Assembly (NCBI GenBank): GCA_964455555.1
Contig: CAYVXV010000001.1
Location: 31,499-95,498, forward strand
Length of the DNA: 64,000 bases
Source of the DNA: an uncultured Pseudomonadales bacterium
GTDB taxonomy: Bacteria; Patescibacteriota; Microgenomatia; UBA1400; PJMF01
Reading direction: 5' to 3'
Shown here piece after piece: positions 4,497 to 24,289 of this stretch. Position numbers and translations under genes: made by a program. The first letter of the stretch is position 1, and each line of letters starts with the position of its first letter. The notes under the pieces are model-generated. The model was not told the origin of the DNA, did no database searches, and saw only the letters and a program-made list of their open reading frames with translations.

Positions 4497-5084
4497 CTAT
4501 TTTTCGAGCAAATCCCTTAGCCAATTGGAAAACCGCTGCCAAATAGTGTTTACTTCCTGCTTAGTTTCCTGAAGCACAAGGTTGGCTGGTTCAGAATTTT
4601 CATTGATCCTCTTCTCTGCCCTTTCCATCACTTGATTGGTTTCTTGTTTTGCCTCCTCAAGTTTTGTGGAAATTTGATCTCTCTTGGCTTCCCTCTCTCT
4701 TTTCAACTTCAAGAACTCTTCCTCCGTCATCAGCCTTATCACTCTCCTGGTGCTAATTTGATCTTGATTGTTTGGATGAGTTATTTTGCCGTTGCGGATA
4801 ACGATCCGCTCGCCCTCACTTCCTTTCACAACATATCGTTTGTTGATGACCTCTTTGCCATTCTCAGAGCGGTATTCCCGCACCACGGTTTCACCATTTG
4901 AGGAGCTGGTAAACTCCTGTTTCACGACTATTTTGCTACTCCCAGAACCGGAAACATTGCTACTGACATTGGAACTAACGGAGTTAGTAGAAATCACGGA
5001 TATATGTGCTGCCTGAACACCGGCTCTCGCCAAAAAAAGCCCACTCAACACAAGTAAGCCTATCGTTAGGTGTTGCTTTGGCAT
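4497..5084 (-). CDS. Hypothetical secreted protein with signal peptide, Ser/Val-rich repeat and C-terminal coiled coil
   Basis: 195 aa. N-terminal signal peptide (LLVLSGLFLARAGVQAA), a short SNVSSNVS repeat, and a K/E-rich heptad-like C-terminus. No recognisable family. Confidence 0.45.
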   Translation of the reverse strand: MPKQHLTIGLLVLSGLFLARAGVQAAHISVISTNSVSSNVSSNVSGSGSSKIVVKQEFTSSSNGETVVREYRSENGKEVINKRYVVKGSEGERIVIRNGKITHPNNQDQISTRRVIRLMTEEEFLKLKREREAKRDQISTKLEEAKQETNQVMERAEKRINENSEPANLVLQETKQEVNTIWQRFSNWLRDLLEK

Positions 5085-5158
5085 ATTAGCAAAAGTCTAA
5101 TCGTGGTTTGCAAAAAGTATAAGAAAAACTTGCAAGAAGACAGTAAAAAGGGAGTGTT

Positions 5159-5764
5159 TTAATTAAAAAGTGACGGATCACAGCCATTGCTCTCGAGCGG
5201 GCAGCTTAGCTGCATCCATTCGTAAAATAACGAAGGATTGCCTTCGATAGCGTAAATAACTTCATTTACCTCCCCAAATTGCCTCAGGGTGGTGCCAACC
5301 TCAGACATAAATTCACTACTGCCACAGCTGGTTGAAGCGTTGGGGATGATCTCCCGAATGTCTGCAAAATTTACATATGCCGTCCCGCCTTCAATCTTTA
5401 TGCTCCAGAGAGAACCCTCTGTATCAGCTGAAAAAAATGAGCTGAATCCAGCTTTCTGCTCCTCCAGCGTCGGCCCTTTTAACAACTCAGAAAGCAGTTG
5501 AAAATAACCGGCATTTCTGGGCAGGTCCCTCGGTACGCCAATTACCTCACTACAATCATTGGGATCAGTTGAAAGATCAATGTTGGCAAAATAAACCTTC
5601 GCGGCAGCGGTTTGTTCTTGCGGAATCTCTGAACCCTGAGGCAATGAGTTCATTTTTTGCTGATTTACCGGAGCATCCATAGTAAACCTCAAAAACATCA
5701 CTGACGTTGCTATCACAATAAAAAATCCTAGGATTACGAGTGAGATAAGACGCGACACTGCCAT
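5159..5764 (-). CDS. Hypothetical membrane-anchored protein (possible GerMN-like domain)
   Basis: 201 aa with a single N-terminal TM helix followed by a Cys-containing soluble domain. The GerMN assignment is a weak guess from overall pattern. Confidence 0.4.
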   Translation of the reverse strand: MAVSRLISLVILGFFIVIATSVMFLRFTMDAPVNQQKMNSLPQGSEIPQEQTAAAKVYFANIDLSTDPNDCSEVIGVPRDLPRNAGYFQLLSELLKGPTLEEQKAGFSSFFSADTEGSLWSIKIEGGTAYVNFADIREIIPNASTSCGSSEFMSEVGTTLRQFGEVNEVIYAIEGNPSLFYEWMQLSCPLESNGCDPSLFN

Positions 5765-7050: not shown

Positions 7051-8220
7051 TTACCCGATAATGAACAGCTCTGCTTCTGCTCTTGTCACTGCTGTATAAA
7101 GCCAGCGGCGCCACATTTCGTCATTCATCTGCTTAAATCTCTCTTCAAATAAAACCACCCGCTTAGCTTGGCTGCCCTGGGCTTTATGAACCGTTAAAGC
7201 GTAGCCAAAATCAAACAAATCGCCCTTTAGAGTTTTGCTGCGCTCCTTGCTGAAGTTTTTTGGGTTGGCTGCATTGAACTGCTCAACAGAAATTAAACCC
7301 TTAAAAGGTTCGGGCTCTTCATCCAGCTCTATTTCGGAAAAGTACCACTCATCACTGTCTTTTTGAAGCGAAATGATAGTTCCTAACATACCGTTGTATA
7401 TGTTCTTTTTGTGGTTATTGCGCAAACAAATTACCCTATCTCCAGGCGTTGGTGCAGGGTCCTCAAAACCCAAAGTTGTCCTGACAAAATTATTCAGCCG
7501 GACACGGGTGTTGTTGTAGCCGCACATAATCAAAGTTTCGGTGGTGTAGTTTCTCAGCAGATGCTCCACCTGATCCTGCGACTCGTAATCCTCACGGGAC
7601 AATTTCTTGACACTGGGTCCATAATCGCCGACTGGAATCTCCCCTGTCTCCCTGGCAAGCATCGAAAGCTTAATAATTGGGTTATCCTCAGCCTGTCGGT
7701 GAATTTTTTCCAGCTTCAGCTGAGGGTCTTCTACTAAATTAAAATTTCCCTGAATCGGGGGCAGCTGGCCATGATCCCCGATGGCAATGATCGGAATGCC
7801 ATAGCGCTTTAAATCATTCCAGATCATATAATCAACCATCGAAGCCTCGTCGATGATAATCAGGTCGTAGTCGAGGGATTCTTTCCTGTCCCAGCTGATA
7901 ATTTCCTGGTTGCTATTAACAACTGGAGAATAAATCAGTGAGTGAATCGTGCCGATAAAATCGCCTTTATAAACAGCTTTAGATTTTTGCAGCGTGGTTT
8001 TGAGCACTCGGGCTGCCTTGCCGGTAAAGCTGATAAAAGCCACTTTTTTCTTTGGGTATGCTTTGTGAAGATGGCTGCGAAAAGCTGAAATTGAAGTTGT
8101 TTTTCCAGTTCCGGCATAGCCGCCTACAGTAATATATTGCTCAGCTGCACTGTCATTTTTCAGCCATTTCCAGAGGGAATTTAGGACCAGCCGTTGGTCT
8201 TGAGAAAGTTCAAATTTCAT
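7051..8220 (-). CDS. RecD/Dda-like SF1 DNA helicase (short form)
   Basis: 389 aa. Walker A GGYAGTGKTT, motif II IIIDEASMVD, and the C-terminal helicase motif ALTVHKAQGSQ. The length suggests Dda/RecD2 core domains only. Confidence 0.75.
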   Translation of the reverse strand: MKFELSQDQRLVLNSLWKWLKNDSAAEQYITVGGYAGTGKTTSISAFRSHLHKAYPKKKVAFISFTGKAARVLKTTLQKSKAVYKGDFIGTIHSLIYSPVVNSNQEIISWDRKESLDYDLIIIDEASMVDYMIWNDLKRYGIPIIAIGDHGQLPPIQGNFNLVEDPQLKLEKIHRQAEDNPIIKLSMLARETGEIPVGDYGPSVKKLSREDYESQDQVEHLLRNYTTETLIMCGYNNTRVRLNNFVRTTLGFEDPAPTPGDRVICLRNNHKKNIYNGMLGTIISLQKDSDEWYFSEIELDEEPEPFKGLISVEQFNAANPKNFSKERSKTLKGDLFDFGYALTVHKAQGSQAKRVVLFEERFKQMNDEMWRRWLYTAVTRAEAELFIIG

Positions 8221-8318
8221 CTAGCCTGCATTGTATCAAATCAGCTTGATATTAGTTGAGAATGCCCAAGCTAATATTAACGCATATTTAACGCTTTATT
8301 ACCGCAACACCTGGATAT

Positions 8319-9677
8319 TTAGCTTTCAAAGCGGATTTCTGCCCCGCGCTCAGGCCCGGTGGTAATCATAAAAACCGGCAGCCCTACCTCTTTTTCGATA
8401 TATGACAAAAACCGCCTTGCTTCCGCCGGCAAAGACTGCCTGTTTTTGGCTTTTCTTAACGCTTTTAAATCCCAAGGCTGCATCTCCCGGTAACGAGGCT
8501 GAACAGTATTCAGGTAATCCTGATCAGGTTTAAATCCGGCTTTTTTCTTTCCCTGCAAATAGGCATCGCAAATTTTTACCGGCTGGCCAGGGTAAACAAT
8601 ATCCATGTGGGTCAAAACCAGGTGAGTTAACTTCCCCACCCTGGCATAGTACTTGATTGCAGGCAAGTCCAAATAAACTACATCCCGAGGTCTGCCAGTA
8701 GTTGCTCCATACTCGTGGGCATCTTCCCTGATACGAGATGCTAGCTCCTCTTCCATAATGGTCGGCAGCTTCCTAACCCCCACGCTTGACATGTATGTGG
8801 CTTTAATCACTCCTGCTCTTAGCGGAATTTGCTCCGGATCAACCACACCTTCACTCGAGGCATATATGCCTGCAGGAGTTGTATCTGAAGAAGTTACATC
8901 CGGATAAACTCCCCATCTAGCATCAAGGCCAATTGCCTGGGACTTCTCGAAAATATAACTATATTCCTCGTCACTCCAGGTGGTTTCAATAAAACCGCGC
9001 ACATCTTGAATCATCGGTTTGAGCTGAGCAACCTGCCGTTTTAGATTGGCTAAAAACTCCTGCTCGGAGGCAACTTGATGTTTGCTGCCATCCAGTGCCG
9101 CCACCCTCATCGTTTCTATCTCAAAACCCAAACCTCTCACAAGTTTTTGGTAAAGTTTGTAGTGCCGGCGCAGCTTGTTAATTTGCCAAGTTTTGATATC
9201 CCTCATCCTAAGAGGATGGCCGTAAAGGATATCTGCATAAGCCGGTGAAATACCTCTGCCAGTAGAAGCCTGATTACCTGATTTCAAGGCTTTCACTGCT
9301 CCTTCGAATGCCCTGTGTGTATCCAAAGACAAAACAGCCATTTCATCAATTTTGATTTCCGCTGGAATTTCTTGGCCGGCTACTTCCTTGACTAATTCCA
9401 TCTCCAGCAGCAGATCCGCCGGGTGTAAAACCATGCCTTTACCAAGCACCACGGCAGCATTCTTAAAGAACACCCCTGAAGGCAGCTGGTGTAAAGCAAT
9501 GCGCTTATCGCCAAACTCAACCGTGTGACCGGCATTGGAGCCGCCATTATCCCTATAAACGACAATTTTTCCTTTTTGGGCAAATTCAGCGACCAGAGCA
9601 TCAACTATCCGTCCTTTGCCCTCGTCTCCGTAAGCGCCGCCGCAAATGACCGCACTGTTCTTCCGAATTTTTGCCAT
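8319..9677 (-). CDS. purA: Adenylosuccinate synthetase
   Basis: 452 aa. GDEGKGRIVD P-loop, GGSNAGHTV, STGRGISPAY, YPDVTSSDTTPAG, GATTGRPRDVVYLD and ITTGPER all align with E. coli PurA signature blocks, with one insertion. Confidence 0.9.
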   Translation of the reverse strand: MAKIRKNSAVICGGAYGDEGKGRIVDALVAEFAQKGKIVVYRDNGGSNAGHTVEFGDKRIALHQLPSGVFFKNAAVVLGKGMVLHPADLLLEMELVKEVAGQEIPAEIKIDEMAVLSLDTHRAFEGAVKALKSGNQASTGRGISPAYADILYGHPLRMRDIKTWQINKLRRHYKLYQKLVRGLGFEIETMRVAALDGSKHQVASEQEFLANLKRQVAQLKPMIQDVRGFIETTWSDEEYSYIFEKSQAIGLDARWGVYPDVTSSDTTPAGIYASSEGVVDPEQIPLRAGVIKATYMSSVGVRKLPTIMEEELASRIREDAHEYGATTGRPRDVVYLDLPAIKYYARVGKLTHLVLTHMDIVYPGQPVKICDAYLQGKKKAGFKPDQDYLNTVQPRYREMQPWDLKALRKAKNRQSLPAEARRFLSYIEKEVGLPVFMITTGPERGAEIRFES

Positions 9678-9681
9678 ATTC

Positions 9682-9882
9682 TTAGTCTTCTTTTGGAATA
9701 AGCAGCCACATTACAATATAAGGCACTAATCCAGGTAATCCGCCAGGCAGCAGCAGCAATACCCAGATAATCCTGATCAAAGTGACATCAATATTGAAAT
9801 AGTTGGACAGCGCCATTGAAACGCCGCCGATTTTGCCACCTTTTTTGGGCAAAATAAGTTTTTTATGCTCCTGCTTTGACAT
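9682..9882 (-). CDS. PspC-domain small membrane protein
   Basis: 66 aa. GGVSMALSNYFNIDVTLIRIIWVLLLLPGGLPGLVPYIVMWLLIP matches the PspC domain pattern. Confidence 0.6.
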   Translation of the reverse strand: MSKQEHKKLILPKKGGKIGGVSMALSNYFNIDVTLIRIIWVLLLLPGGLPGLVPYIVMWLLIPKED

Positions 9883-9911
9883 AATTATGAGTTAATGGCT
9901 GAGGGCCAAAC

Positions 9912-10232
9912 TTAGGCGGCTGCGCTATTCTGAGAAGCCGGCTGGTAATTTTTAAGAAATTCTTCAGCGAATGACTCTTGGTATTCTTCTATGGCAGCAG
10001 CGGGAGTTTTGCCGGTATTCAGCTCATAAAATGAGTCAATCAGTGCATTAGCCACCTCTTCATTGTCGGCTGCGCTAAGGGCTGATTGCTGCTCTTCACT
10101 GAAGGTTGCTAAACCCTGAGTATAAAGCATCATTGATGCTGCCTTAATAATCTCAGTGAGCAAAATTGCAATATCTTCCTCCGGAGTATTGTTTTCCTCA
10201 AGAACCTGAATCATTTGTTGGAATTTACTCAT
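9912..10232 (-). CDS. Hypothetical acidic protein
   Basis: 106 aa, strongly acidic. Lies immediately downstream of the giant ORF in the same orientation. No recognisable motif. Confidence 0.4.
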   Translation of the reverse strand: MSKFQQMIQVLEENNTPEEDIAILLTEIIKAASMMLYTQGLATFSEEQQSALSAADNEEVANALIDSFYELNTGKTPAAAIEEYQESFAEEFLKNYQPASQNSAAA

Positions 10233-10240
10233 AGATGCTC

Positions 10241-13200
10241 CTATTGCAAGTTATTATTTGCAGCTGCTTCAATAAGTTTTTGTACATCAGCCGGGTCAAT
10301 CTGTCGCAGAACTTCCTGCGAGGTATTCGGGCCTAAGCGCAACAACAGCTCTTGCAGTTCGTTGCTGGCTCCATTGTTCATGGCAGCTTCCATAGCCTGG
10401 TCTATATTGCGGATAACCGCATCACTGAGGAAGGTTCCTTCCTGCCCTACCTGAGCCCCAGTTTCAAAAAGGCCAAAGTGCTGATGGATGTTTTTAAGCG
10501 CATTAACCGTCGGATTGTCTGCACTTAGGTTCATGCTTCTTAATTGATTGGCATAGTAGCTCCAAGGATAATCACCGGCTTCAACAATCACGTTTGTGGT
10601 GGCTTCGGCTGCGGCCTGCGCTGTTCCCTCAGCGGCATTGCTGGCGGCATCGGTTGCAGCCCCCGAACCCTCAAGACCGCGCAAGGTTTCCCGGACATCA
10701 TCGACAGTCGCTTCTGCACCGGAGGCTGCTTCGGCTGCGCCTTCTGCAGCAGCCTCATCTATGCCGGATTGGAAACCCATGCCTTCTAAGTCCTCCAGTG
10801 AGGTTGCTTCCCCTGGAACCGGAGTTCTAAGAGATGGAGTTAATTCATCAGCCGCTCCAGCATCAGCCGTTTGGTCGATCCCCTGCTCCAGCGGCAGGGC
10901 GGTGCCTGCCTCATCGCCGGAAGCAGTCTCAAACGCCGGTGTGCCGGCTGCCTCAGACCCCTGTCCTTGAGCTAAGTTTCTAATCTGGTCGCCGGCTAAT
11001 AAGTCTAATAAATTAGCCAACAAGACTACTCTGGCAGCATCAGAAAGGCCTTCTCCGGCTAACCGGGCTTGCTCACCAAATTTTGAGTCAGCAATCTTGG
11101 CAGCGTGCTCAGATGCTCTCTTGAGGATTTTAACGGCATTCTGGCCTCTGTCCCGATTTGCTTCCCAATAATCAAGCAGTTCATCAAAAGACCGCGCTTC
11201 GCCCTTGGTAGCGATTTTCGCTCCCTGCTCAATGGCAAATGAGGATGTAGCAAAACCGATCCTGGCAGCAGCCACCAATGGGCCGCCCAGACTCAGCAGA
11301 ACGACTCCCGGAAAGTAGGCAGCCCGCTTCATGGCGCCCTCTTGAACAAAGATGGTCCTTTTAAGACGCTCCCGGACTCCTTCAAAATCAAATTCGCCTT
11401 TTACCTCACCGTATATCTGCCGTTCTCCATACCGGTTGACCGGAACTTTATATGGATTGGCAGATTGCAGGACGGCAAACAGAGTCGCGTTAAACCATTT
11501 GCCTTTTTTGTCACCTTCCCATAAGCCAACGCGGAATTTGCGATTTTTGTATTTGACAATATCTGCCATCAGCTTGTTTGGCAGTTCATTAGCTTTCCAA
11601 TAATCCTGCAGCCTCCGGTTGTAGCCAATTCTGTCTGTGAGCAGCAAGGCCACAACCTGTTCGTGCCCGATTTCGTCTGCACCGCTGACAAAATTGCGCC
11701 TCCATTCATCCAGGATGCTGTGCACTTCAGTTTCACCGGCATGGTACTTTTCAATTGCTTCCTTTACCTCTTGGCTTTCAATGCCTTCCATAAAGTCGGC
11801 TAGGCTTTGTTCCAGTGACCGCTTGGCATTGCCTTGGATCCTTTCAACAAAAGCCTCAGACTTTTCCCCCGGTTTGCGCATAGCTTCTCCAAGGCGCTGG
11901 CGGAGACTGGGGCCGGTTTCCGTCAAATCAAAGTACTCTGCTGTCATCTCACGGAAAGTGATTTCCTGGCCATCAATTTCATATTTAAATTGATCCTGCC
12001 CGTCAGTCTTGGCAGCAATTTCATCCAAAATTCTTTGCCTGCTTTCACCACTCGGCCTATCTTTGGCAAACAACAAATAGGCAGCCAGATCCTGGGGGCT
12101 GAATTGGTCTAAGTTCTGGCTTTCGTCCTCAAGGGCAGCTGTAATTCTTGCTGATAGCTCAGCATCATGAATGGCGGAAACTCCCTTGCTCTCCAGGAAA
12201 GTCTTCAACTGCTCAGTCCGAACCCTTTTAGCCTCAGCCTCAGCAGCGGACTGCTCTCTTCTTTCTTTGATTTCGCGTGATTTAGCCCTCGCTGCATCTA
12301 AGGGGTGCGGCCTATTCTGCCATTTTTCACTCATCCGCTCTCTAAACCCAGGTCCGGGCTCAGCAATTCCCTCCGGCTCTCCGGCCAGGTCAAAATATTC
12401 CTTTAAAATCTCACTAAGTGGGGTGCTGACCCCATCCTCCAACTCATATGCGGGCATTGGGCTGAGGTCGTTTTCTATATAAGCCATCACAGTACCGACC
12501 TGCTCTTCTGAAAGCCCGGTCTCTGTTGCATAAAGAAGCACGCTGACCAGTTCGTGGACTTCCACTTCAGCGATATTGCCGGCGCTAATTTTCTCTCTGG
12601 CGGCTTCAATAATCTCTTGGTCATAAATGCGGCTATAGCCATGATCGCCGAGGAAATCCTTGAGCTGCTGCTGCCGCTCCTGGCGTTCTCTGAGGGCTGA
12701 GCGCCTCTCCTTGATTCTATTTAACTGACTGCGAGCTGAGTCAATCGGCCTGGGGCGGTTGCTCCAAGCCTCAGTGGCACCCTTCCTGGCCCTGGCTAAA
12801 ACTCCAGGTTGAAATTGCCGGCCGATTTCAACCAACTCATCCACATTCCATCCCTGATTTTCTAAAATAGGTGCATATTCCCTAAAGTCAGCAGGCGACA
12901 TTTTTCCGTACATATACATTGCCACCACCTGATAAACTTGCGGGCCAAGGGCATCCATAGGCTGATTGTCAAAATTGCTTTTCCACCCATTTAACTGAGC
13001 CTCATTGATGTCTGCCAAATTTTGACCATTTGACTGCTCATTGAACTTTGCGGCAACTCCCCACATCTTTACAATATCCGGGTTAGCCTCACTCATCTCT
13101 TCACTAAGCCTTCTGGCGTCACGCTCAGATTTTGCAGTTTTCAACCTGCCCCAAATTTCGTGGGCGGTCTGAAAACGGGCATTCTCTTCCTTGTTTTTCA

Positions 13201-15558: not shown

Positions 15559-16167
15559 CTAATTGGCGCCGCTTGGCCCGCGGATAGTTTTCCGGTCGCG
15601 CTCAATCTTCTGGGCAGCCTTCTGTTTGCCTGAACCAGCGGGTCCAACCGGACCTTTTTGCGGTCCTGATGGAATCACATATTCCTCAGACCGCTGGGCC
15701 TCAAGCTGCTTTCTCTGCTCAGTCTCTTCTTCGGCTGCCTGCCTTTTTTTTAGCTCTGCCTCGTACATTTGCTGAGCCACTGCCCGCTCGTCCGCCGTCA
15801 GCTTCTCGTAGCGGCTGTGAGCCTGCTTTCTCTTTGACATCTCCTCCGGGTCTTTGGCTTCCTGATTTAGGCCAAGCCAGTTAGTAATGTTTAAAAGGTT
15901 TTTGGTTTCGTCTAAAATATCTTTGGGTATAAGTTTAAGCTCATCCGAAACCGTGCCGATCGGGCGGGGCTCCTTTGGCGTGCTGGTTTGACCAACAGAC
16001 TGGCTGGCTGGCACCGGACCGGAAGAACCGGCCTGCTGCTGCGAAAGAGCCTTTTGCTGCAGAGCCTGCTCCATTGCCCTCTCTTCCATATGCTCGCCAA
16101 AGTCGCTGTTTGCTCGGTTAAAACCACCTCCTTGCCGGGGAACCGCTGATTGCTTGGGGCTTGGCAT
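15559..16167 (-). CDS. Hypothetical Gln/Glu-rich, probably disordered protein
   Basis: 202 aa low-complexity ORF on the same strand as its neighbours. No family recognised. Confidence 0.4.
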   Translation of the reverse strand: MPSPKQSAVPRQGGGFNRANSDFGEHMEERAMEQALQQKALSQQQAGSSGPVPASQSVGQTSTPKEPRPIGTVSDELKLIPKDILDETKNLLNITNWLGLNQEAKDPEEMSKRKQAHSRYEKLTADERAVAQQMYEAELKKRQAAEEETEQRKQLEAQRSEEYVIPSGPQKGPVGPAGSGKQKAAQKIERDRKTIRGPSGAN

Positions 16168-16178
16168 AATTGTCTTTA

Positions 16179-16613
16179 TTAAACCTTGGTGTGTTTTAAC
16201 TGCTCAATCTGATATCCGTCCTGCTGCTGTTTCTGCTGCTCTTCTTCAGACGCTTCTTCCTGCTGCTGTTCACTGCGGGCTTGATACTCCGGAGATGATT
16301 GAATCGAGGCGATTTCCTGGCGCTGCTTCTCAAGCTCTTCAAGATCGGCGGCTTCGTTCTGTTGAGACAACTGCTGATACTCAGCTTGTTCCTGGGCTTT
16401 TCGGGCAGCCTCTGCCTCTGTATGTGCTTGATCTACCAAAACAGCTTCAGCTGCTGCTTCAACCACCGGTCCCGGAGCCTGGGCATCAACCCCTGCTTCT
16501 GCTTTTCTTTTTTTGGCTGATTCCAACAGTTTTTCCAGTTCAGAAAGAGGGTTGTTTTCAGCGGATGAATCTTGTTGATCTTGAAGATCTTGGTTTTGCG
16601 AAGGGTCACTCAT
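16179..16613 (-). CDS. Hypothetical acidic Gln/Glu-rich protein
   Basis: 144 aa, very acidic and Q/E-rich, directly upstream of the previous ORF. Confidence 0.4.
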   Translation of the reverse strand: MSDPSQNQDLQDQQDSSAENNPLSELEKLLESAKKRKAEAGVDAQAPGPVVEAAAEAVLVDQAHTEAEAARKAQEQAEYQQLSQQNEAADLEELEKQRQEIASIQSSPEYQARSEQQQEEASEEEQQKQQQDGYQIEQLKHTKV

Positions 16614-16707: not shown

Positions 16708-17046
16708 TTACGCCCGCTGCAGCTTGAGGCGGCTGTTGCGTTTCAGCGTGCGGCGTTTTTCGTAGTTTTTCCTGAGTTGCCTCATAGCTACGCTCGTAGC
16801 GTCGACAACTGCTTCATACATATCCACTGCCGTTTTGCGGACTACCACATCTTTGCCGGGAATGGATATGTGGAAAGTAACGGAGTTGGCTCCGGGGTCG
16901 TTGGTTTTTTTTGGAATGTTTTCCAAATGAACCCTAATTTGTGTAACACCTTTGCCAAGCTTAGAAAGCTTAGTGGCTTGCTGCTCAATATAGGAGCGCA
17001 AAGCCTGTGTTACTTTGAGACGCTTAGACTCGACAATTACTGTCAT
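16708..17046 (-). CDS. hpf: Ribosome hibernation promoting factor / RaiA family (short form)
   Basis: 112 aa. KVTQALRSYIEQQATKLSK...SVTFHISIPGKDVVV...DMYEAVDATS matches the sigma-54 modulation / S30EA family pattern. AAAGGAG SD 7 nt upstream. Confidence 0.8.
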   Translation of the reverse strand: MTVIVESKRLKVTQALRSYIEQQATKLSKLGKGVTQIRVHLENIPKKTNDPGANSVTFHISIPGKDVVVRKTAVDMYEAVVDATSVAMRQLRKNYEKRRTLKRNSRLKLQRA

Positions 17047-17884: not shown

Positions 17885-18514
17885 TCAGATTTTGAGCTTA
17901 GCAGAGACTACTTCCCAGACCTCATCATCCACTTCATCGATAGTCTTGGAAGCATCAATTTTGTGCCAGCGGTTTTCCGAACCGCCAGCCAACTCTAGAT
18001 AGGCTTCTCTGACCCGTTGATGGAAATCCGTATCCTCCATCTCAAACCGGTTGGAGCCGCCATCGAGCTCCCTTCTCTTTAGGCCGGTTTCCACGGGAAC
18101 ATCTAGCAATAGCGTGAGATCAGGATAAGTGTCTTTTGTAGAAATATTGTTGAGCTGTTCAATCATATCCTTGCCAAAACCTCTGACCATACCTTGATAA
18201 ACCACAGAGCTATCCCTCGACCGGTCCATGAGCACGATCTTGCCAACTTCCAAAGACGGCAGGACAAGCTCCCGATAAATTTGCGCGCGGGCTGCCTGAA
18301 ACAATAAGACCTCGGTGGTATATGCCATACCGACATTTTTTGATGACAGCACCACTTCGCGGATTTTCTCGCTAATCACCGTTCCACCCGGCTCCCTGAG
18401 CACCAACACATCTTTGCCGACCTTGGTCAGCTTATCGCGCAGCCGGACAATCTGGGTGGTTTTACCACTGCCTTCTCCGCCTTCAAAAGTAATTAAGAAA
18501 CCTTTATCTGCCAT
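17885..18514 (-). CDS. tmk: Thymidylate kinase
   Basis: 209 aa. P-loop FEGGEGSGKTTQ, DRSRDSSVVYQG lid region, and the LID motif. Confidence 0.9.
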   Translation of the reverse strand: MADKGFLITFEGGEGSGKTTQIVRLRDKLTKVGKDVLVLREPGGTVISEKIREVVLSSKNVGMAYTTEVLLFQAARAQIYRELVLPSLEVGKIVLMDRSRDSSVVYQGMVRGFGKDMIEQLNNISTKDTYPDLTLLLDVPVETGLKRRELDGGSNRFEMEDTDFHQRVREAYLELAGGSENRWHKIDASKTIDEVDDEVWEVVSAKLKI

Positions 18515-18525
18515 ATTAAAGTGAG

Positions 18526-19596
18526 CTAATCAGCTGCTCCTGCAAATATTAATACTTCCCGGCCAGGATTAATGCGCTTAACCTGAAACTCTCGCAGGCC
18601 GGCTTCGCTTAAATTACCTATAAGATCACTATAAACTATTTCAGCCACTCTATCATCATCTTCAAAAACTTGCAGCATCAACCAAGCTTGATAGGCCTCA
18701 TACCAATCACCTCCCAATTCTTTGGGCTCGTCTACATCCACAACCTCAGCAGGACTATAAAATCTGCGTGTGCCGAATTGGCCACGCTTGCCCTTGTTTG
18801 GCCCACTGACTACTGCCGGCCCATCAAATTGAGATTTGCAGGCTTCAATTGCTTTATCATAACGCTCAGCGATAGCTTTGTTTTTCATTTCATCGGTCAA
18901 GCTCGGGTCATTAAGAATATCTTCATAGCGATCTTGCAGCAATGACGGGGGGTAGCGCAGGTTGTTGCGGGCTATCTTTTCCATAGAAGACTTGACCGGA
19001 TGCCTTCCCAAAATGCCAAACAGTACATATACATGAGCTACAACAGTTTCAAGAATTGCCATTTTTTCTGCTGGATTCAGTGCTTTCCACTCTTCCTGAT
19101 TCTCCGGGTTCAGCAACCTTGCTTCATAATTAAGTTGATCGCGGAAATGCTTAAAAGTTTTTTCTTCGTGTGCTGTTAAATCCTTTTTCTCATTATTGTG
19201 GCCCAGGTGAGAAACCAACGAAACTCGGCTGGCTTCAGCTAAAGCCGCTGCCTGCTGCTCTACCCCGGCCTCATCAATCGCCAATTCTTCACCAAACTCG
19301 AGAGAAATTGCATTCAAAACATCTTGAAGGAATATTAAAACATCAGCCAATTCCTGATGGCGATACTCTGACCTTCTGGAAACATCAGCAAAATAGCCAT
19401 ACTTATCAGAGCCATTAAGCTCCTCAATCTCACCCCAAAGAAGGTGAAAGGTTTGTTCAGGAATTCGTTCATGGGCAATTGACAAGGTCGGCCGGTCAGC
19501 GCGGAAAGCTTGAGATCCAAGCCTCACTAAAGCCAACGAAGACTGACTTAGAAGCTCACGAGAAAAATAGTAGCAGCCGGATTCCTCATTAGTCAC
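18526..19596 (-). CDS. Hypothetical protein with putative tandem MazG-like NTP pyrophosphohydrolase domains and an unknown C-terminal extension
   Basis: 356 aa. EExxE...ELADVLIFL and a second EKMAILETVVAHVYVLFGILG...KIARN block resemble the MazG all-alpha NTP-PPase EExx(E/D) helices. Sits in the tmk-dut nucleotide cluster. The assignment is tentative. Confidence 0.4.
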   Translation of the reverse strand: MTNEESGCYYFSRELLSQSSLALVRLGSQAFRADRPTLSIAHERIPEQTFHLLWGEIEELNGSDKYGYFADVSRRSEYRHQELADVLIFLQDVLNAISLEFGEELAIDEAGVEQQAAALAEASRVSLVSHLGHNNEKKDLTAHEEKTFKHFRDQLNYEARLLNPENQEEWKALNPAEKMAILETVVAHVYVLFGILGRHPVKSSMEKIARNNLRYPPSLLQDRYEDILNDPSLTDEMKNKAIAERYDKAIEACKSQFDGPAVVSGPNKGKRGQFGTRRFYSPAEVVDVDEPKELGGDWYEAYQAWLMLQVFEDDDRVAEIVYSDLIGNLSEAGLREFQVKRINPGREVLIFAGAAD

Positions 19597-19737
19597 AATG
19601 AAAATAAAACCACAACATGTTGTATGCGCACAAGGACTAAATTACAAACTATTGTGTTGTAAGAGAAATAATTTCCGAGGCAATCAGTCTAAAAAGCAAC
19701 TTTGAGTAAGATATTTTTGGACAAGCAGTTTCGCTAA

Positions 19738-20187
19738 TTATTTGCGGCCTGTGCTGCCAAAACCGCCCCTGTTCACAGTTTCAAAGGTTTCCAGTTCGAC
19801 AAACTCAACCTTGTCCCGCTTCAGGATAATCATCTGGACTATCCGCTCACCCTTCTCAATAACAACGTCCTGATCTGTAAAATTATAAAGAGCGGCCAGG
19901 TACTCATCATCATCGCCGCGGTAGTCATAATCACCAACACCAATGCCGTTGGCCAACATCACTCCGCGCTTATGCAGTGAACTTCGGGCGCTTACCAAAG
20001 CCCAATAACCTTCCGGCAGCTGCAAGGCTACATTCAGCGGAACATACCCGATGCCCCTGGCAGGGATATTTGTATCTTCCCTGGCATAAAGATCAAAAGC
20101 AGCTGCACCTTCGGTTTTATATTCGGGATGAGGCAGCGCTGGCTCAAACAATTTAATTTTGACTTGTATTTTGCCTTTACTGCTCAT
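19738..20187 (-). CDS. dut: dUTP diphosphatase
   Basis: 149 aa. AAAFDLYA, SARSSLHKRGVMLANGIGVGDYDYRGD and C-terminal GGFGSTG correspond to trimeric dUTPase motifs I to V. Confidence 0.85.
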   Translation of the reverse strand: MSSKGKIQVKIKLFEPALPHPEYKTEGAAAFDLYAREDTNIPARGIGYVPLNVALQLPEGYWALVSARSSLHKRGVMLANGIGVGDYDYRGDDDEYLAALYNFTDQDVVIEKGERIVQMIILKRDKVEFVELETFETVNRGGFGSTGRK

Positions 20188-20193
20188 TTGTTC

Positions 20194-20739
20194 CTACCTG
20201 TTTTTTAACTTGTATTCCAACATTAATACCTGGTCTGATAAGTTTTTAGTTGCTTTAAGAATCATCCGTTGATTTATCGGCTCGGTAAATAAGCTAACTC
20301 CCCGGCCAAAAACTACCGGCTCAATGGTGAGATAAAGCGACTCAACTAATCCGGACTTCATAAACATGGTGTAAATGCTCGCTCCACCCGAGACGGCTAG
20401 TTCAGTGTAGCCTTCTTTAGCTGCTTTCTTAACCAATTCTTCAGGGGGCATATTTACCGGTTCAACTTCGTCCGGATTAAAGGTGGCCAATGCCTCCGGA
20501 TTTCGGGTATAAACATAGATTTTTCTGCCAGGCAGAGGTTTGTTTATTGTCTTGAAAGTGGTTAAACCCATAACCAAAGCGCGGGCTGCCTTGGTCCGCT
20601 CTACAAAAAACTGCAAATCTTCTTTGCTGGTCCAGCTTGTGGAGACATCATCTGTCTCTTCAGCAATATATCCATCTGCAGTTAAAGCAACAATAATAAA
20701 GACGTGCATATGAGAGCATCCTAACAAGAAGTGGTTCAA
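20194..20739 (-). CDS. Dihydrofolate reductase-like (DHFR / RibD C-terminal family)
   Basis: 181 aa. IIVALTADGYIAEE... and KPLPGRKIYVYTR parallel the DHFR IAAL...GRPLPGRKNIIL blocks. Genomic context with thyA, dut and tmk. Confidence 0.6.
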   Translation of the reverse strand: MNHFLLGCSHMHVFIIVALTADGYIAEETDDVSTSWTSKEDLQFFVERTKAARALVMGLTTFKTINKPLPGRKIYVYTRNPEALATFNPDEVEPVNMPPEELVKKAAKEGYTELAVSGGASIYTMFMKSGLVESLYLTIEPVVFGRGVSLFTEPINQRMILKATKNLSDQVLMLEYKLKNR

Positions 20740-20789
20740 AAAACCAGGTGCCAGAACAACCCAAACTCTGCTATTAAGAAGGTGCTACA

Positions 20790-21371
20790 ATGCAAACTAG
20801 TATGAGCAACGCTGACAAAGTTATCTTAGATTATTCCGCGATCTCTCCCCTTGTCGATCAATACCGTCGCGCCGGCAAAAGCATTGTCCTTACTCAGGGT
20901 TCGTTTGACATGATCCACATTGGCCATGGCCGGTACCTTGAGGAAGCCAAAAAACATGGTGAGGTGCTTTTTGTTGGTGTTGACTGTGATGACAAGATCC
21001 GCCACCGAAAAGGCCCCGACCGCCCTATTGTCCCAGAGGAAGAGCGCTTAGAGATGCTTACCTATATGACAGCCGTAGATCACGCCGTGCTCAAACCGCT
21101 TAAAAAACCCAAGTGGGAGCTTATTAAAATCATCAAACCGGATGTACTAATCACTACCAAAGAAACCTACTCACCGGAGAAGATCAAGGAATTGGAAGAA
21201 ATCTGCGGCAAAGTGGTGGTTCTGGACCCCATGGCCACCACCTCCACCAGTGCAAAAATCCGCTTGGTTCAAATGGGTGCAGCCAGAAAATTAAGCACTA
21301 CCCTCACAGATAAGCTGATTGCCACTATTGAGGAAGTGCTGGACGAAGTAAAAGCCAGCGAAAAAGCCTGA
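20790..21371 (+). CDS. Cytidylyltransferase-fold nucleotidyltransferase (TagD / RfaE domain II-like)
   Basis: 193 aa. GSFDMIHIGHGRYLEEAKKHG is the (H/T)xGH nucleotidyltransferase motif, with the same spacing as glycerol-3-phosphate cytidylyltransferase and heptose-1-P adenylyltransferase. GAAGGTG SD upstream. Substrate unknown. Confidence 0.6.
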   Translation: MQTSMSNADKVILDYSAISPLVDQYRRAGKSIVLTQGSFDMIHIGHGRYLEEAKKHGEVLFVGVDCDDKIRHRKGPDRPIVPEEERLEMLTYMTAVDHAVLKPLKKPKWELIKIIKPDVLITTKETYSPEKIKELEEICGKVVVLDPMATTSTSAKIRLVQMGAARKLSTTLTDKLIATIEEVLDEVKASEKA

Positions 21372-21373
21372 AC

Positions 21374-22210
21374 ATGAAACCAGTTATCATTGCCTATATC
21401 CCGGTTCTCCACCGCGGCTACAAAAATTTTCTAGAGAAACATAAAAAAGCGGAATCGCTTTTCCTAATTACCTCCGAGCTGGATAGCGGGCTCGATTACC
21501 TAAACAAAGAAATCCGCGCCCTCAGCGCAGATGATGTAAAAACCGCCATCAATTCTTGGGGGCTGGGCTTTAAGACTCAAGCTCTCACTCTTCAGATTCT
21601 TAAGAACCTCGCCCAAAATAAACAACCAATAATTATCCCCCGCGAAGATATATCCGACCTGGTGGCCAAACGCTTTCTTCCTGAAAACCCTGTTGAAATT
21701 GATGAGATTTTTCTCAGATGGGACCGGAATAATACGCTGGAAGAAAGATCCATTGCCACCGATAAAACCATTCGGGCGATTGACTTTGGCAAGCATATTG
21801 CTGAAGCAGGCAACAAAGAAGCAGAACTCAGCTCAGATTGGTGGCGGCAGGTCGGCGCCGTTGCCTTTAAAGGAAGCCAAATACTCCTTTCCGGGCACAA
21901 CCGCCATCTTCCCACAGATCACCAGCCTTACTTTGACGGAGACCCTAGAAATGCATTTTCAAAAGGCACTAACATTGAGCTCTCCATCGCCATCCATGCC
22001 GAAGCCAGCGTGATAGCCCAAGCTGCCAAAGAAGGAATAAGCCTAAACGGCACGGAAATGTATGTCACCACTTTCCCATGCCCTCCCTGCGCCAAACTCA
22101 TCGCGGAAAGCGGAATTAAAACACTTTACTTCTCAGATGGGTATGGCGTGCTGGACGGTCAAAATGTCCTTAAAAACGCCGGAGTAAAACTGGTAAAAGT
22201 TGAGCCTTAA
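21374..22210 (+). CDS. dCMP/CMP deaminase-family zinc deaminase with about 150-aa N-terminal domain of unknown function
   Basis: 278 aa. C-terminal HAEASVI...PCPPCAKLI is the cytidine/deoxycytidylate deaminase H-A-E / P-C-x-x-C zinc motif. The first ~150 aa match nothing I recognise. Start is 3 nt after the upstream gene stop. Confidence 0.7.
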   Translation: MKPVIIAYIPVLHRGYKNFLEKHKKAESLFLITSELDSGLDYLNKEIRALSADDVKTAINSWGLGFKTQALTLQILKNLAQNKQPIIIPREDISDLVAKRFLPENPVEIDEIFLRWDRNNTLEERSIATDKTIRAIDFGKHIAEAGNKEAELSSDWWRQVGAVAFKGSQILLSGHNRHLPTDHQPYFDGDPRNAFSKGTNIELSIAIHAEASVIAQAAKEGISLNGTEMYVTTFPCPPCAKLIAESGIKTLYFSDGYGVLDGQNVLKNAGVKLVKVEP

Positions 22211-22275
22211 TGTTTAACGCCCTATCGGCTTAACGCACTTGCGCTTTGTACCCTGGTATTTTTCGCCCCAACAGA

Positions 22276-22743
22276 CTATCTGCCAAGTTTTTCGGGTGAT
22301 TTTCCCAGAGTCACTTTAACCGAACGGTATCCGTCCGCCTCAAGATCAGGCGAGATTAATTGAGCATGTATGTGCTGGACACTGCCGGCAGAATGATTGG
22401 TATCACCAAAGCGCATGATTAAGCCCCCTCCGGGAATCTCAAATTTATCCTGAGCCCACTGCGCCAATTTCAACAATTCTTTGCCCGATTCAGGATCCAT
22501 CTCCCGCAGGTCTTCAGCGTGTGATTTGTAGATAAGAAGAAAGTGCGCTCTGGTAAATTCATATGGCCACTGGTTGGTGGTTAAGAGCCAGTGCTCTCCC
22601 TCTTTCAAAATTTCCTGTTTGTTGTACTTTTGAAAGTTCTCCGGGCAAAAGGGGCAGCCGCCATCCTCAACGATTTGCCTCATCACATCTGCCTGGTCAG
22701 CTTCGCGGGCATTGTCCAAGTCTACATGTTTCTTGCTGTTCAT
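22276..22743 (-). CDS. HIT-family (histidine triad) nucleotide hydrolase/transferase
   Basis: 155 aa. N-terminal CPFC, and the HIT motif SVQHIHAQLI (H-x-H-x-H-x-x). Confidence 0.7.
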   Translation of the reverse strand: MNSKKHVDLDNAREADQADVMRQIVEDGGCPFCPENFQKYNKQEILKEGEHWLLTTNQWPYEFTRAHFLLIYKSHAEDLREMDPESGKELLKLAQWAQDKFEIPGGGLIMRFGDTNHSAGSVQHIHAQLISPDLEADGYRSVKVTLGKSPEKLGR

Positions 22744-22752
22744 TATTTGCTC

Positions 22753-23667
22753 CTAAATTGCTACCGGTATTGCCGCTATACCAGGATGCGGGTCATAATC
22801 GCTGAGTTCAAAGTCTTCATGCCTAAATGCGAATAAATCATCTTTTTTGTCAGCATTTAACTTCATGGTTGGGAAAGGCCTGGGATCGCGGCTAAGCATC
22901 TTCTCAACCGCCGGAACCTGGTCTACGTAAATATGCGCGTCAGAAAAACTATGAACATACTCATATGGTTCCAAACCCGTTAATTGAGCAATCATCATTA
23001 GCAAAGCTGAATATTGTGTGATGTTGGCTGGCACGCCTATCGGCACATCAGCCGAGCGCTGAATCATATGCAAAGTAAGCTTGTTATCAATCACCCTGAG
23101 ATGCACCCAGCCATGGCACGGGCAAACCACCACTTTCTGCTGTTTGCCTTTGCCCCGGATAGTGTATTGGGGAATCCATGGTGTAATGAAATGAGTTCTT
23201 AAGTGCGGCAGCTCCATGATCTGCTCAACAATATTTTTAAATTGATTATAGGTGTCGCCGTCGGCGGTCGGAAAATCATGAAAGGCCGCGCCATAAGAAC
23301 CGGGACCAAGGTCTCCGGTTTCAAGACCTCGTTTTTTGCACTTAGCCTCTGTTCCCCAGGGCTCCCACCAGTAACAACCATATTCTTCCAATTGTTCCAA
23401 AGTGCGGGCACCATTGATAAAACCAATAATTTCAGCGATTGCCTGACGCCAAACCGTCACCGGCAGCCGCTCGGATTCTTTGGGAGCCATATTGCGTTCA
23501 GTTATAAGAGGAAAGCCGTTTTCCAGCTTAAAATGCAAAGGCTTGGGGCCAATCAATGTTAAAGCATCAACGCCTTGTTGGCTTTTGACTCTGACGCCGT
23601 TTTCCAAAATGTCACGAAGCAAATCCTGGTACTGAGTGTCGGGGGTTCGTTTTGCAAATGTCTTCAC
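22753..23667 (-). CDS. thyA: Thymidylate synthase (ThyA type), with insertions
   Basis: 304 aa. FPLITERNMA, catalytic CPCH, RSADVPIGVPANITQYSALL, DAHIYVDQ, and C-terminal FRHEDFELSDYDPHPGIAAIPVAI align closely to E. coli ThyA blocks. Confidence 0.85.
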   Translation of the reverse strand: MKTFAKRTPDTQYQDLLRDILENGVRVKSQQGVDALTLIGPKPLHFKLENGFPLITERNMAPKESERLPVTVWRQAIAEIIGFINGARTLEQLEEYGCYWWEPWGTEAKCKKRGLETGDLGPGSYGAAFHDFPTADGDTYNQFKNIVEQIMELPHLRTHFITPWIPQYTIRGKGKQQKVVVCPCHGWVHLRVIDNKLTLHMIQRSADVPIGVPANITQYSALLMMIAQLTGLEPYEYVHSFSDAHIYVDQVPAVEKMLSRDPRPFPTMKLNADKKDDLFAFRHEDFELSDYDPHPGIAAIPVAI

Positions 23668-23728
23668 CTGCTCCTTTCGGTATTTAGATTATCAGCAAAA
23701 ACCTAGCTGTCCATGGCAGAGCGAATCG

Positions 23729-24289
23729 CTAGCCTAGGTACAACTCCTGTGCTTCAATATAATCTAAGACACGCTCATCTACAAGCCCGCTAATATCCTC
23801 GCCTGACCGGTGTTTTTCTCTGACCTCTGTAGAGGAAATTTTAACAGTCGGCACATCTTCCAAAGCTGTCATGTGCGGATAAACAGGTTCCATGGGAAAG
23901 CCCTCGCGCGGATAAATTAAAAAAGGGAAATCCAGCAACAGCGGATGGCCTTTAAGAAAATCGTCAAACTTCGGCAGGTATTCTGAACCCATTACCCAAA
24001 AAATTTGATCATCCGGATTTTGCTTAGAGAAGTGAATTAAGGTGTCGTAGGTATAGCTAACCTGTTTAAAGTGAACGACTTTTTGATTTTCGCCCACTAT
24101 TCTCTCAAGCATTGCAACCCGGTGGTCGTAAGCAGAAAATTGTTTGCCCAAACGGGCTGCCCAGGGGTGTTCGAAGACGGGGACAAACCACAGTTCATCC
24201 AAGTATCCCTGTTCAAGCAAAGCTGAAGCAACCTGCTGATGGCCGAGGTGCGGCGGGTCAAAGGTGCCTCCGAATAAACCTATTTTCAT
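23729..24289 (-). CDS. nadD: Nicotinate-nucleotide adenylyltransferase
   Basis: 186 aa. GLFGGTFDPPHLGH nucleotidyltransferase motif and the SSTEVR ATP-binding motif near the C-terminus. Confidence 0.85.
   Translation of the reverse strand: MKIGLFGGTFDPPHLGHQQVASALLEQGYLDELWFVPVFEHPWAARLGKQFSAYDHRVAMLERIVGENQKVVHFKQVSYTYDTLIHFSKQNPDDQIFWVMGSEYLPKFDDFLKGHPLLLDFPFLIYPREGFPMEPVYPHMTALEDVPTVKISSTEVREKHRSGEDISGLVDERVLDYIEAQELYLG

Follow-up and report, generated by a model that had tools for sequence, protein, structure and literature searches.

Our analyses of the window, a 64,000-nucleotide stretch of contig CAYVXV010000001.1, describe the thymidine-nucleotide supply island of a Patescibacteria (candidate phyla radiation, CPR) genome. 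The conserved core of this island is a four-gene unit, in which the gene of a stand-alone HIGH-motif nucleotidyltransferase (NTase) is followed by that of an extended deaminase, the two being convergent with thyA(-folA)-HIT. Judging from its structural model, the extra N-terminal domain of the deaminase (hereafter the N-domain) is a divergent nucleotidyltransferase fold. The reading that we favour, to which we give slightly less than an even chance, is that the NTase and the N-domain would act as a nucleotide-binding pair that controls or feeds the production of dUMP, with the HIT protein removing a nucleotidylated product. This proposal is made by analogy with known paired nucleotidyltransferase folds.

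Results

A linked NTase and deaminase across the Patescibacteria

Full-length homologues of the deaminase (about 277 aa) number more than 1,700 in the protein collection, the named ones coming from Patescibacteria, and 496 GTDB species genomes encode the extended enzyme. Gene linkage was counted in the 80 best genome loci, where the NTase gene lies directly upstream of the deaminase gene on the same strand in every case (80/80), with junctions mostly between -4 and +10 nt. Convergently downstream of the deaminase, HIT is found in 77 and thyA in 75 of these loci. When the count started from the NTase, the deaminase was present in 69 of the 73 metagenome loci with enough downstream sequence, and among the 43 loci with at least 3 kb of it, the deaminase was present in 42, HIT in 41 and thyA in 41. 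The linked classes are deeply divergent and include WWE3, Moran-, Uhr-, Kaiser-, Taylor-, Woese- and Pacebacteria. The original prediction, made on the window, had singled out the NTase and the extended deaminase as members without an obvious place in the canonical route; both are indeed non-canonical, uncharacterised and tightly linked, and their module proves to be lineage-wide across Patescibacteria, not peculiar to the window. The same prediction had allowed that the NTase might be a standard ortholog that occurs without the deaminase, which the metagenome loci show to be almost never the case. The papers in the library that we searched contain no account of the module or of the N-domain.

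The two genes are closely spaced in the window: between the NTase stop codon (TGA, 21369-21371) and the deaminase ATG at 21374 there are only the two letters 'ac'. This 2-nt spacer fits translational coupling, as had been predicted. An apparent NTase-deaminase fusion in another locus (L067) was discarded as an artefact, a stop codon parting the two genes.

Clustering of the open reading frames (ORFs) of the 80 loci identified glyA, folD, canonical folA, dut, tmk and a T4-gp1-type deoxynucleoside monophosphate (dNMP) kinase as the other recurrent neighbours, all of them genes of thymidylate supply. Genes of sugar, lipid, flavin or CoA metabolism were not recurrent among the clustered ORFs. A P-loop kinase of about 188 aa adjoins the module in about 20 of the 80 loci (for instance L024, 6519-7085; L004, 6798-7367; L032, 11502-12068; L050, 6712-7278), and its copy in L024 matches PF21448, the T4 gp1-type deoxynucleotide monophosphate kinase, with 37.5 bits against 27.1. 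In 38 of the 80 loci, tblastn (E <= 1e-5) places a match to the reductase of the window no more than about 8 kb from the deaminase, and in many loci canonical folA stands in place of this RibD_C-type reductase. The nadD gene is near the module in only 7 of the 80 loci, and is a neighbour outside the conserved module.

The deaminase and its N-terminal domain

The earlier description of an unexplained N-terminal domain of about 150 aa is borne out by our searches, in which residues 1-146 of the deaminase gave zero matches in Pfam, NCBIfam, PHROGs, PADLOC and the PDB sequences, by phmmer as well as with a 33-sequence profile. A Pfam scan carried out member by member at E <= 5 matched none of the 33 N-domains, to PF01467 or to any other family, and the viral contigs scanned for the N-domain contained zero relatives. 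A known regulatory domain, which the original prediction had considered, is likewise matched by none of the profile searches. Fold comparison of the model revealed something that the prediction had not foreseen, namely a five-stranded Rossmann-like fold that is nearest to cytidylyltransferase-type NTases, the matches including ECT, TagD, CCT and the RibL-like structure 3glv.

The invariant residues of the N-domain are A-Y-x-P-V-L-H13-x-G15-Y16, K45/R48, P89/D92 and F-L-R115-W-D117, and in the model the invariant polar ones sit just past β-strands 1, 2, 4 and 5. The region after these strands is the usual nucleotide crevice of the HIGH-type NTase fold. His13-x-Gly15, K45, R48 and R115 are kept where such enzymes hold nucleotide phosphates. 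The second His of HxGH is lost, HxGY being found in 79 of 81 N-domains, and FLRWD occupies the position of the ISST-type motif. The modelled fold suggests that the N-domain has very probably kept the ability to bind a nucleotide or phosphate ligand. One deaminase orthologue (L030) carries QRSY in place of HxGY, with K45/R48 and FLRWD kept, and may be a degenerate variant. When the N-domain profile was aligned with the NTase profile by hhalign, the probability was 1% and not significant; HxG is nonetheless in register with the HIGH motif. Because this comparison is not significant, a recent duplication of the NTase cannot be claimed as the origin of the N-domain.

A tblastn match in Thermobifida phage P318 (90% query cover) was rejected as a homologue of the N-domain, as it spans two separate ORFs (L170, 3911-4837; MK240575.1). 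The first, annotated 'ssDNA binding protein', encodes an unrelated 142-aa protein with GDCPTGAD. The second, an unannotated ORF of 147 aa, is a canonical GYNG-type dCMP deaminase and lies close to the phage ThyX.

The rest of the deaminase is of a familiar kind. The PF00383 match is confined to residues 154-253 (58 bits, cut-off 25), and the best PDB relatives by phmmer are the enzymes of S-TIM5 (4p9c, 5e-15), T4 (1vq2, 2.7e-13) and S. mutans (2hvv, 2.3e-12). The profile phrog_174, 'dCMP deaminase', matches at 4e-30. When the full-length model was compared with the PDB by Foldseek, the top 13 matches were all dCMP or dCMP/dCTP deaminases; against the PDB and the BFVD viral models, single-domain dCMP deaminases were the only kind returned, a two-domain analogue being absent. 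The zinc motifs HAE and PCPPC are retained in the window, and among 81 orthologues H[ASGCI]E is found in all (HAE in 59), as is PCxxC. On sequence grounds, the enzyme is predicted to convert a deoxycytidine nucleotide (dCMP, dCDP or dCTP) to a deoxyuridine nucleotide.

The dCTP/dTTP allosteric site of dCMP deaminases is marked by G(Y/W)N(A/G) (PMC12088426). This position reads GHNR in the window and xHNx across the family, the fourth residue being almost never A or G, and the catalytic domain is without the canonical dCTP/dTTP allosteric motif. The deaminase shares the zinc motifs and the closest relatives of the dCMP deaminases, and departs from them in the allosteric motif. Its protomer also differs, having 278 aa in two domains as against the single-domain protomer of about 20 kDa that assembles into the homohexamer of dCMP deaminases. 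A basic loop, inserted relative to the S-TIM5 enzyme and modelled at low confidence, contains an invariant GDPR and a nearly invariant Lys.

The possibility of a defence system was also considered and rejected. The deaminase matches the models of the anti-phage dCTP deaminase (NF041025 and PADLOC dCTPase) over residues 192-274 of the core domain only (about 75 residues) with 68 bits against 400, which places it outside that family, and its context is housekeeping.

The NTase, HIT and ThyA partners

The best NCBIfam model of the NTase is rfaE_dom_II (TIGR02199), with 105.4 bits against a cut-off of 181.5. It falls outside the RfaE-domain-II equivalog, and heptose-pathway genes are not recurrent in the 80 neighbourhoods. 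The best PDB matches are ECT (3elb, 3e-18) and HldC (5x9q, 7e-14), and the protein also resembles RibL-like 3glv, archaeal PPAT and TagD. The NTase signature is complete (H43-I-G45-H46, K74-G75-x-x-R78-P and T151-S-T-S-A-K-x-R158), with H43-I-G45-H46, K74, G75, R78, TSTSAK and R158 invariant, and from these motifs the enzyme is predicted to be catalytically intact. An extra conserved helical tail is found at the C-terminus (residues 160-190). Sequence identity is 60-77% among the 120 best database matches and 42-76% across the 80 genome loci.

The HIT protein matches B. subtilis Hit (1y23) with an E-value of 0.004. C30, C33, H124 and H126 are invariant, and the third position of the triad is occupied by H in 50 orthologues and by Q in 21. 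The protein of the window has Gln128 (22360-22362) at this position, and Asn41 (22621-22623) where 68 of 71 orthologues have His; the closest relative (L001) has His at 41, and Gln at 128 like the window. In many loci, two or three tandem HIT paralogues lie between the deaminase gene and thyA (for instance L003, 8913-10100; L004, 8918-11386; L078, 8854-11231), and 167 HIT ORFs were counted in 76 loci, the window having one. Between the deaminase gene and thyA, some loci also have a further ORF, unannotated and about 165-180 aa long (for instance L032, 8895-9443; L078, 9522-10013).

ThyA has the catalytic C184 as well as R204, S205, D207, N215 and H245, all conserved at 95% or above. An Asn at the last-but-one of these positions is the mark of a dUMP-type enzyme, and an Asp would mark a dCMP-specific one. 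The residues indicate that ThyA is of the dUMP-methylase type. With Cys184 and Asn215 kept and the other canonical genes confirmed, the complete route from dUMP through dTMP to dTDP, as originally proposed, stands. The insertions that had been noticed in ThyA are also real, and highly conserved across Patescibacteria; they comprise residues ~101-126 (23290-23367) and ~167-180 (~23130-23170), and in the stretch W..W.T..KC.KRGLE.GDLGPGSYG many positions reach 95% identity or more. Such insertions could be lineage-specific interaction surfaces.

Exchange of the unit for DCD and ThyX

Further information came from the relatives of the 356-aa protein encoded next to tmk in the window. The single sequence gave zero matches in Pfam, NCBIfam and the PDB (phmmer), and a word-index protein search found only the protein itself. 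An exhaustive HMMER search yielded 27 representatives of the family (50% clustering), in which E56, E59, Q81, E82 and D85 never vary and K207, R210 and N211 hardly do, giving a metal-site pattern of ExxE...QExxD...K..RN..(K/R)YP. The profile of this family matches dCTP pyrophosphatase 1/RS21-C6 (2a3q, 6sqw; E 9e-4) and 4qgp (6e-3). This match, together with the conserved metal residues, makes the 356-aa protein plausibly a MazG/DCTPP1-type deoxynucleoside triphosphate (dNTP) pyrophosphatase. The sequence looks like a single MazG-like core split by an insert of about 85 aa, followed by a C-terminal extension of about 130 aa, in which 'FDG...G.RP..GT..FY' is conserved. The label of a MazG-like tandem-domain protein with some 100 extra C-terminal residues was not confirmed by the Pfam, NCBIfam and PDB searches: the likeness to MazG is reached through the family profile only, the core looks like one split unit instead of a tandem, and the extension seems longer than had been thought. 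In every context read, the 356-aa gene is directly upstream of tmk.

Three loci with a 356-aa homologue (L161, L163 and L167) retain the gene arrangement of the window around it. Four others (L164-L166 and L169) share the flank dut-p356-(tdk)-tmk-recR, with recR 70% and tmk 75% identical to those of the window, and in them the whole NTase-deaminase/HIT-thyA(-reductase) block is replaced by the dCTP deaminase DCD and ThyX (L164, 1171-3337; L169, 1166-3350), a thymidine kinase gene being inserted before tmk. In this swapped region, nadD is the sole CTP_transf_like gene, and the NTase and HIT are absent at that position. The swap suggests that NTase and HIT are functionally tied to the dCMP-deaminase/ThyA route, and the interchange with DCD and ThyX points to a plain supply of dUMP and dTMP.

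Two of these contexts have features of their own. The ThyX of the swapped loci is unusually long, at 534 aa, about twice the usual length. In L167, an HD-domain YfbR-like gene (a putative 5'-deoxynucleotidase; 4676-5305) lies between thyA and the reductase gene, dut is not called on that stretch, and genes for dihydroorotase, DHODH, OPRT and OMP decarboxylase follow downstream of tmk (7920-12966). Patescibacteria are commonly viewed as being without de novo nucleotide synthesis, and these pyrimidine genes are unusual in that light.

Gene content of the window

The ORF listing and the family scans confirmed all nine ORFs of the cluster (17885-24289), as originally listed (Table 1). The genes that flank it are cysS, recR, topA and dprA, and these, together with the names attached to the homologues, place the window in the Patescibacteria/CPR; the closest syntenic genome is that of Patescibacteria bacterium UBA1370 (L001). 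The true start of the DHFR-like ORF is probably Met11 (~20709). Promoter and terminator scans of the region gave no more sites than in shuffled sequence, and an Rfam scan of it found zero RNA elements. Outside the cluster, two adjoining minus-strand ORFs (15559-16167, 202 aa; 16179-16613, 144 aa) encode low-complexity proteins with a high content of Gln, Glu, Ala and Lys. They lie between cysS and a 112-aa ORF (16708-17046) whose product resembles, by eye, a ribosome-hibernation factor.

Table 1. Genes and domains of the thymidine-nucleotide supply island, with positions in the window
Feature	Position	Strand	Matches and motifs
tmk, dTMP kinase, 209 aa	17885..18514	-	PF02223 1.6e-45; TIGR00041 171.7 bits (cut-off 83)
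Putative MazG/DCTPP1-like dNTP pyrophosphatase, 356 aa, with internal insert and C-terminal extension	18526..19596	-	family profile
dut, dUTPase, 149 aa	19738..20187	-	PF00692 9.6e-23; TIGR00576 104.4 bits (cut-off 102.6)
DHFR/RibD_C-type reductase	20194..20739	-	PF00186 (DHFR_1) 60 bits, 2.7e-16; PF01872 (RibD_C) 57 bits, 3.3e-15
HIGH-motif NTase, 193 aa, RfaE-domain-II/ECT-like, with C-terminal helical tail	20790..21371	+	PF01467 71.6 bits (cut-off 21), 9.3e-20
Deaminase, N-terminal domain, residues 1-146	21374..21811	+	predicted divergent HIGH-type NTase fold; HxGY, K45/R48, P89/D92, FLRWD
Deaminase (278 aa, whole gene 21374..22210), dCMP-deaminase-type catalytic domain	21812..22210	+	PF00383 8e-16; HAE, PCPPC
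HIT-family protein, 155 aa	22276..22743	-	PF01230 21.7 bits (cut-off 21.5), marginal; CPFC, HxHxQ
thyA, thymidylate synthase, 304 aa, with lineage-conserved insertions	22753..23667	-	PF00303 3.1e-66; TIGR03284 185 bits (cut-off 108)
nadD, nicotinate-nucleotide adenylyltransferase	23729..24289	-	TIGR00482 119.9 bits (cut-off 112.45)

Discussion

The flux genes of the island are ordinary. The MazG/DCTPP1-like enzyme and Dut would yield dNMPs, the deaminase would convert a deoxycytidine nucleotide to a deoxyuridine nucleotide, ThyA with the DHFR-type reductase would yield dTMP, and Tmk would yield dTDP. The remaining components may serve to control or feed this flux. We consider the N-domain to be a nucleotide-binding, probably non-catalytic module that would pair with the stand-alone NTase, in the manner of the two cytidylyltransferase domains of ECT or of the GCT/CCT homodimer. 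Such a pair may bind a nucleoside triphosphate and either stand in for the lost allosteric site or deliver substrate. It would couple the (deoxy)nucleoside-triphosphate state, or the reaction of the NTase, to the deaminase, and would gate the dUMP that reaches ThyA. The HIT protein may clear or recycle a nucleotidylated by-product.

Several observations weigh against the pairing of NTase and N-domain. The hhalign comparison of the two profiles is not significant, and the relative orientation of the domains is uncertain in the full-length model of the deaminase (pTM 0.61). The strong conservation of H13, K45, R48, R115 and D117 would equally suit a catalytic site. Two loci, L146 (1224-1796) and L155 (774-1346), have an NTase of about 60% identity without an adjacent deaminase, and in L155 there are zero ORFs of at least 80 aa within 2 kb downstream of it. 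Finally, the swap comes from two sets of short contigs, which probably represent one lineage and whose genomes may have copies of the NTase and HIT elsewhere.

A bolder form of the proposal is that the NTase, the extended deaminase and the HIT protein or proteins constitute a new, Patescibacteria-specific enzymatic route or regulatory device. Cytidine nucleotides would give dUMP via a nucleotidylated intermediate ((d)CDP-X or a dinucleotide) handled by the deaminase complex, or the product of the NTase would be an allosteric signal for thymidylate synthesis; we think this unlikely. Much the same standing, that of an improbable candidate, is given to a substrate-feeding cycle. In such a cycle the NTase, with the N-domain possibly active as well, would convert (d)CTP and a phosphorylated acceptor to (d)CDP-X and pyrophosphate, HIT would release (d)CMP, and the deaminase would form (d)UMP. 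The net effect would be to turn dCTP into dUMP with neither a dCTP deaminase nor a MazG enzyme; in a variant, the deaminase would act directly on the cytidylylated intermediate. The complete catalytic signature of the NTase and its best PDB match, the cytidylyltransferase ECT, agree with this cycle, as does the presence of HIT in 77 of the 80 loci, often duplicated (167 ORFs in 76 loci). HIT enzymes release a nucleoside monophosphate (NMP) from NMP-X. The cycle would also fit the exchange of the whole unit for DCD, which starts from dCTP, together with ThyX, the restriction of the MazG-like alternative source of dCMP to a small clade of 27 representatives, and the invariant basic loop GDPR...K in the deaminase, which is absent from the S-TIM5 enzyme in the alignment. 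However, two enzymes and a recycled acceptor would be an uneconomical way to hydrolyse dCTP, and no acceptor can be named. The strongest NCBIfam match of the NTase, moreover, is the adenylyltransferase RfaE domain II, which leaves the nucleotide specificity undecided, and the N-domain is without the second His and the ISST-type motif.

Less likely still is a linkage without shared chemistry, in which the NTase would be a housekeeping adenylyl- or cytidylyltransferase acting on phosphopantetheine, FMN, glycerol-phosphate or a sugar phosphate, and the N-domain an oligomerisation scaffold. The likeness of the NTase to HldC/RfaE-II, RibL-like 3glv, archaeal PPAT and TagD would suit such a role, and so would the NTases of L146 and L155 that have no adjoining deaminase; nadD, another HIGH NTase, is also nearby in the window. 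An unrelated NTase is nevertheless hard to reconcile with adjacency in 80/80 and 69/73 loci, with tight spacers, over deeply divergent classes. In the DCD/ThyX swap, the NTase is lost from its position along with the deaminase, HIT and thyA. Its partner deaminase bears a domain of the same fold. As for the scaffold, the invariant polar residues of the N-domain exceed what a plain scaffold would need.

The original prediction had favoured an undescribed nucleotide-modifying or nucleotide-sugar activity of the NTase and the extended deaminase; the two might, for example, form a pathway to a modified pyrimidine. That both proteins are uncharacterised and strictly linked, and that ThyA has lineage-specific conserved insertions, could be read in this sense. 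Nothing in our results points to such an activity, however, and we regard it as very improbable: ThyA retains the residues of a dUMP methylase including Asn215, the core of the deaminase is nearest to ordinary dCMP deaminases, and the module is interchangeable with plain DCD and ThyX. Recurrent genes of a glycosyltransferase, a kinase or a DNA-modification enzyme, which might have supported a modification pathway, are absent from the 80 loci, the N-domain has no homologues in the viral contigs scanned, and PADLOC matches the deaminase core only. A remnant riboflavin/FAD cluster, made up of a RibD-N-like deaminase, a RibD_C reductase and a RibL-type FMN adenylyltransferase, was rejected as scarcely credible, since the matches that suggest it (RibD_C at 57 bits on the reductase, TIGR00326 (RibD) at 22 bits on the deaminase, and RibL-like 3glv among those of both the NTase and the N-domain) are outweighed by a RibD score far below its cut-off of 156 and much poorer than those of dCMP deaminases, by the canonical folA that replaces the RibD_C-type reductase in many loci, by the absence of riboflavin-like sequences from the 25 most recurrent ORF clusters, which were read, by the invariant partners thyA and HIT, and by glyA, folD, dut and tmk nearby.

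Patescibacteria account for a large share of bacterial diversity, and a dependence on nucleotide salvage is commonly assumed for them. The module occupies the single step where they make thymidine nucleotides, and its NTase, N-domain and HIT protein are strongly conserved. If the NTase and the deaminase do form a complex, this would be a new way to regulate or feed a dCMP deaminase. It would also give functions to families that are mis-annotated as 'heptose 1-phosphate adenylyltransferase' and as plain 'dCMP deaminase', and would add a new domain family.

Comparison with known systems

The T4 set (td, frd, cd, gp1 and gp56) comprises the same enzymes as the island, namely ThyA, DHFR, dCMP deaminase, dUTPase and a MazG-like dNTPase, with the dNMP kinase found in about 20 related loci. 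T4 is without an NTase or HIT component, and its Cd is without an N-terminal extension. The NTase for its part shares 'HxGH ... KG..RP ... STS..R' with HldE/RfaE domain II, HldC and the archaeal RibL/PPAT-type NTases. It differs from them in its sub-cut-off score, in having no heptose, lipopolysaccharide, flavin or CoA neighbours, in its helical tail and in its invariable deaminase partner.

Two-domain deaminases are known from the anti-phage dCTP deaminase AvcD/DCD and from vertebrate CDADC1, in which a nucleotide-binding or architectural N-terminal domain precedes a dCMP-deaminase-type domain, as it does here. The N-terminal domain of AvcD is P-loop kinase-like. Neither N-terminal domain is related to the one described here, and the present deaminase has its place in the housekeeping synthesis of dTMP and not in defence. 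For CDADC1, the extra domain, an inactive second deaminase, has been proposed to render allosteric regulation of the canonical kind superfluous (PMC12088426). The dCMP deaminases DCTD/Cd/ComEB (1vq2, 4p9c, S. mutans 2hvw and human DCTD 2w4l) share with the C-terminal 130 residues the fold, HAE, PCxxC and the Arg before 'VGA', and their genomic role beside thyA is the same as here. They differ in consisting of one domain (about 20 kDa) and in having G(Y/W)N(A/G) at the subunit interfaces (PMC12088426); the present enzyme is without this allosteric motif, has the GDPR...K loop inserted and a 146-residue domain of probable NTase fold fused to it, and is obligately linked to an NTase gene.

A further close architectural parallel comes from ECT/Pcyt2 (3elb/4xsv), the best PDB match of the NTase, which the N-domain also matches by fold. 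ECT has HxGH in both of its domains and holds them in one chain, whereas here the second fold has HxGY and no ISST-type motif, and shares its chain with a deaminase, its pairing with the NTase being proposed by analogy. The two tandem cytidylyltransferase folds of ECT form a pseudo-dimer, and the NTase together with the NTase-like domain of the deaminase would mirror this arrangement across two polypeptides.

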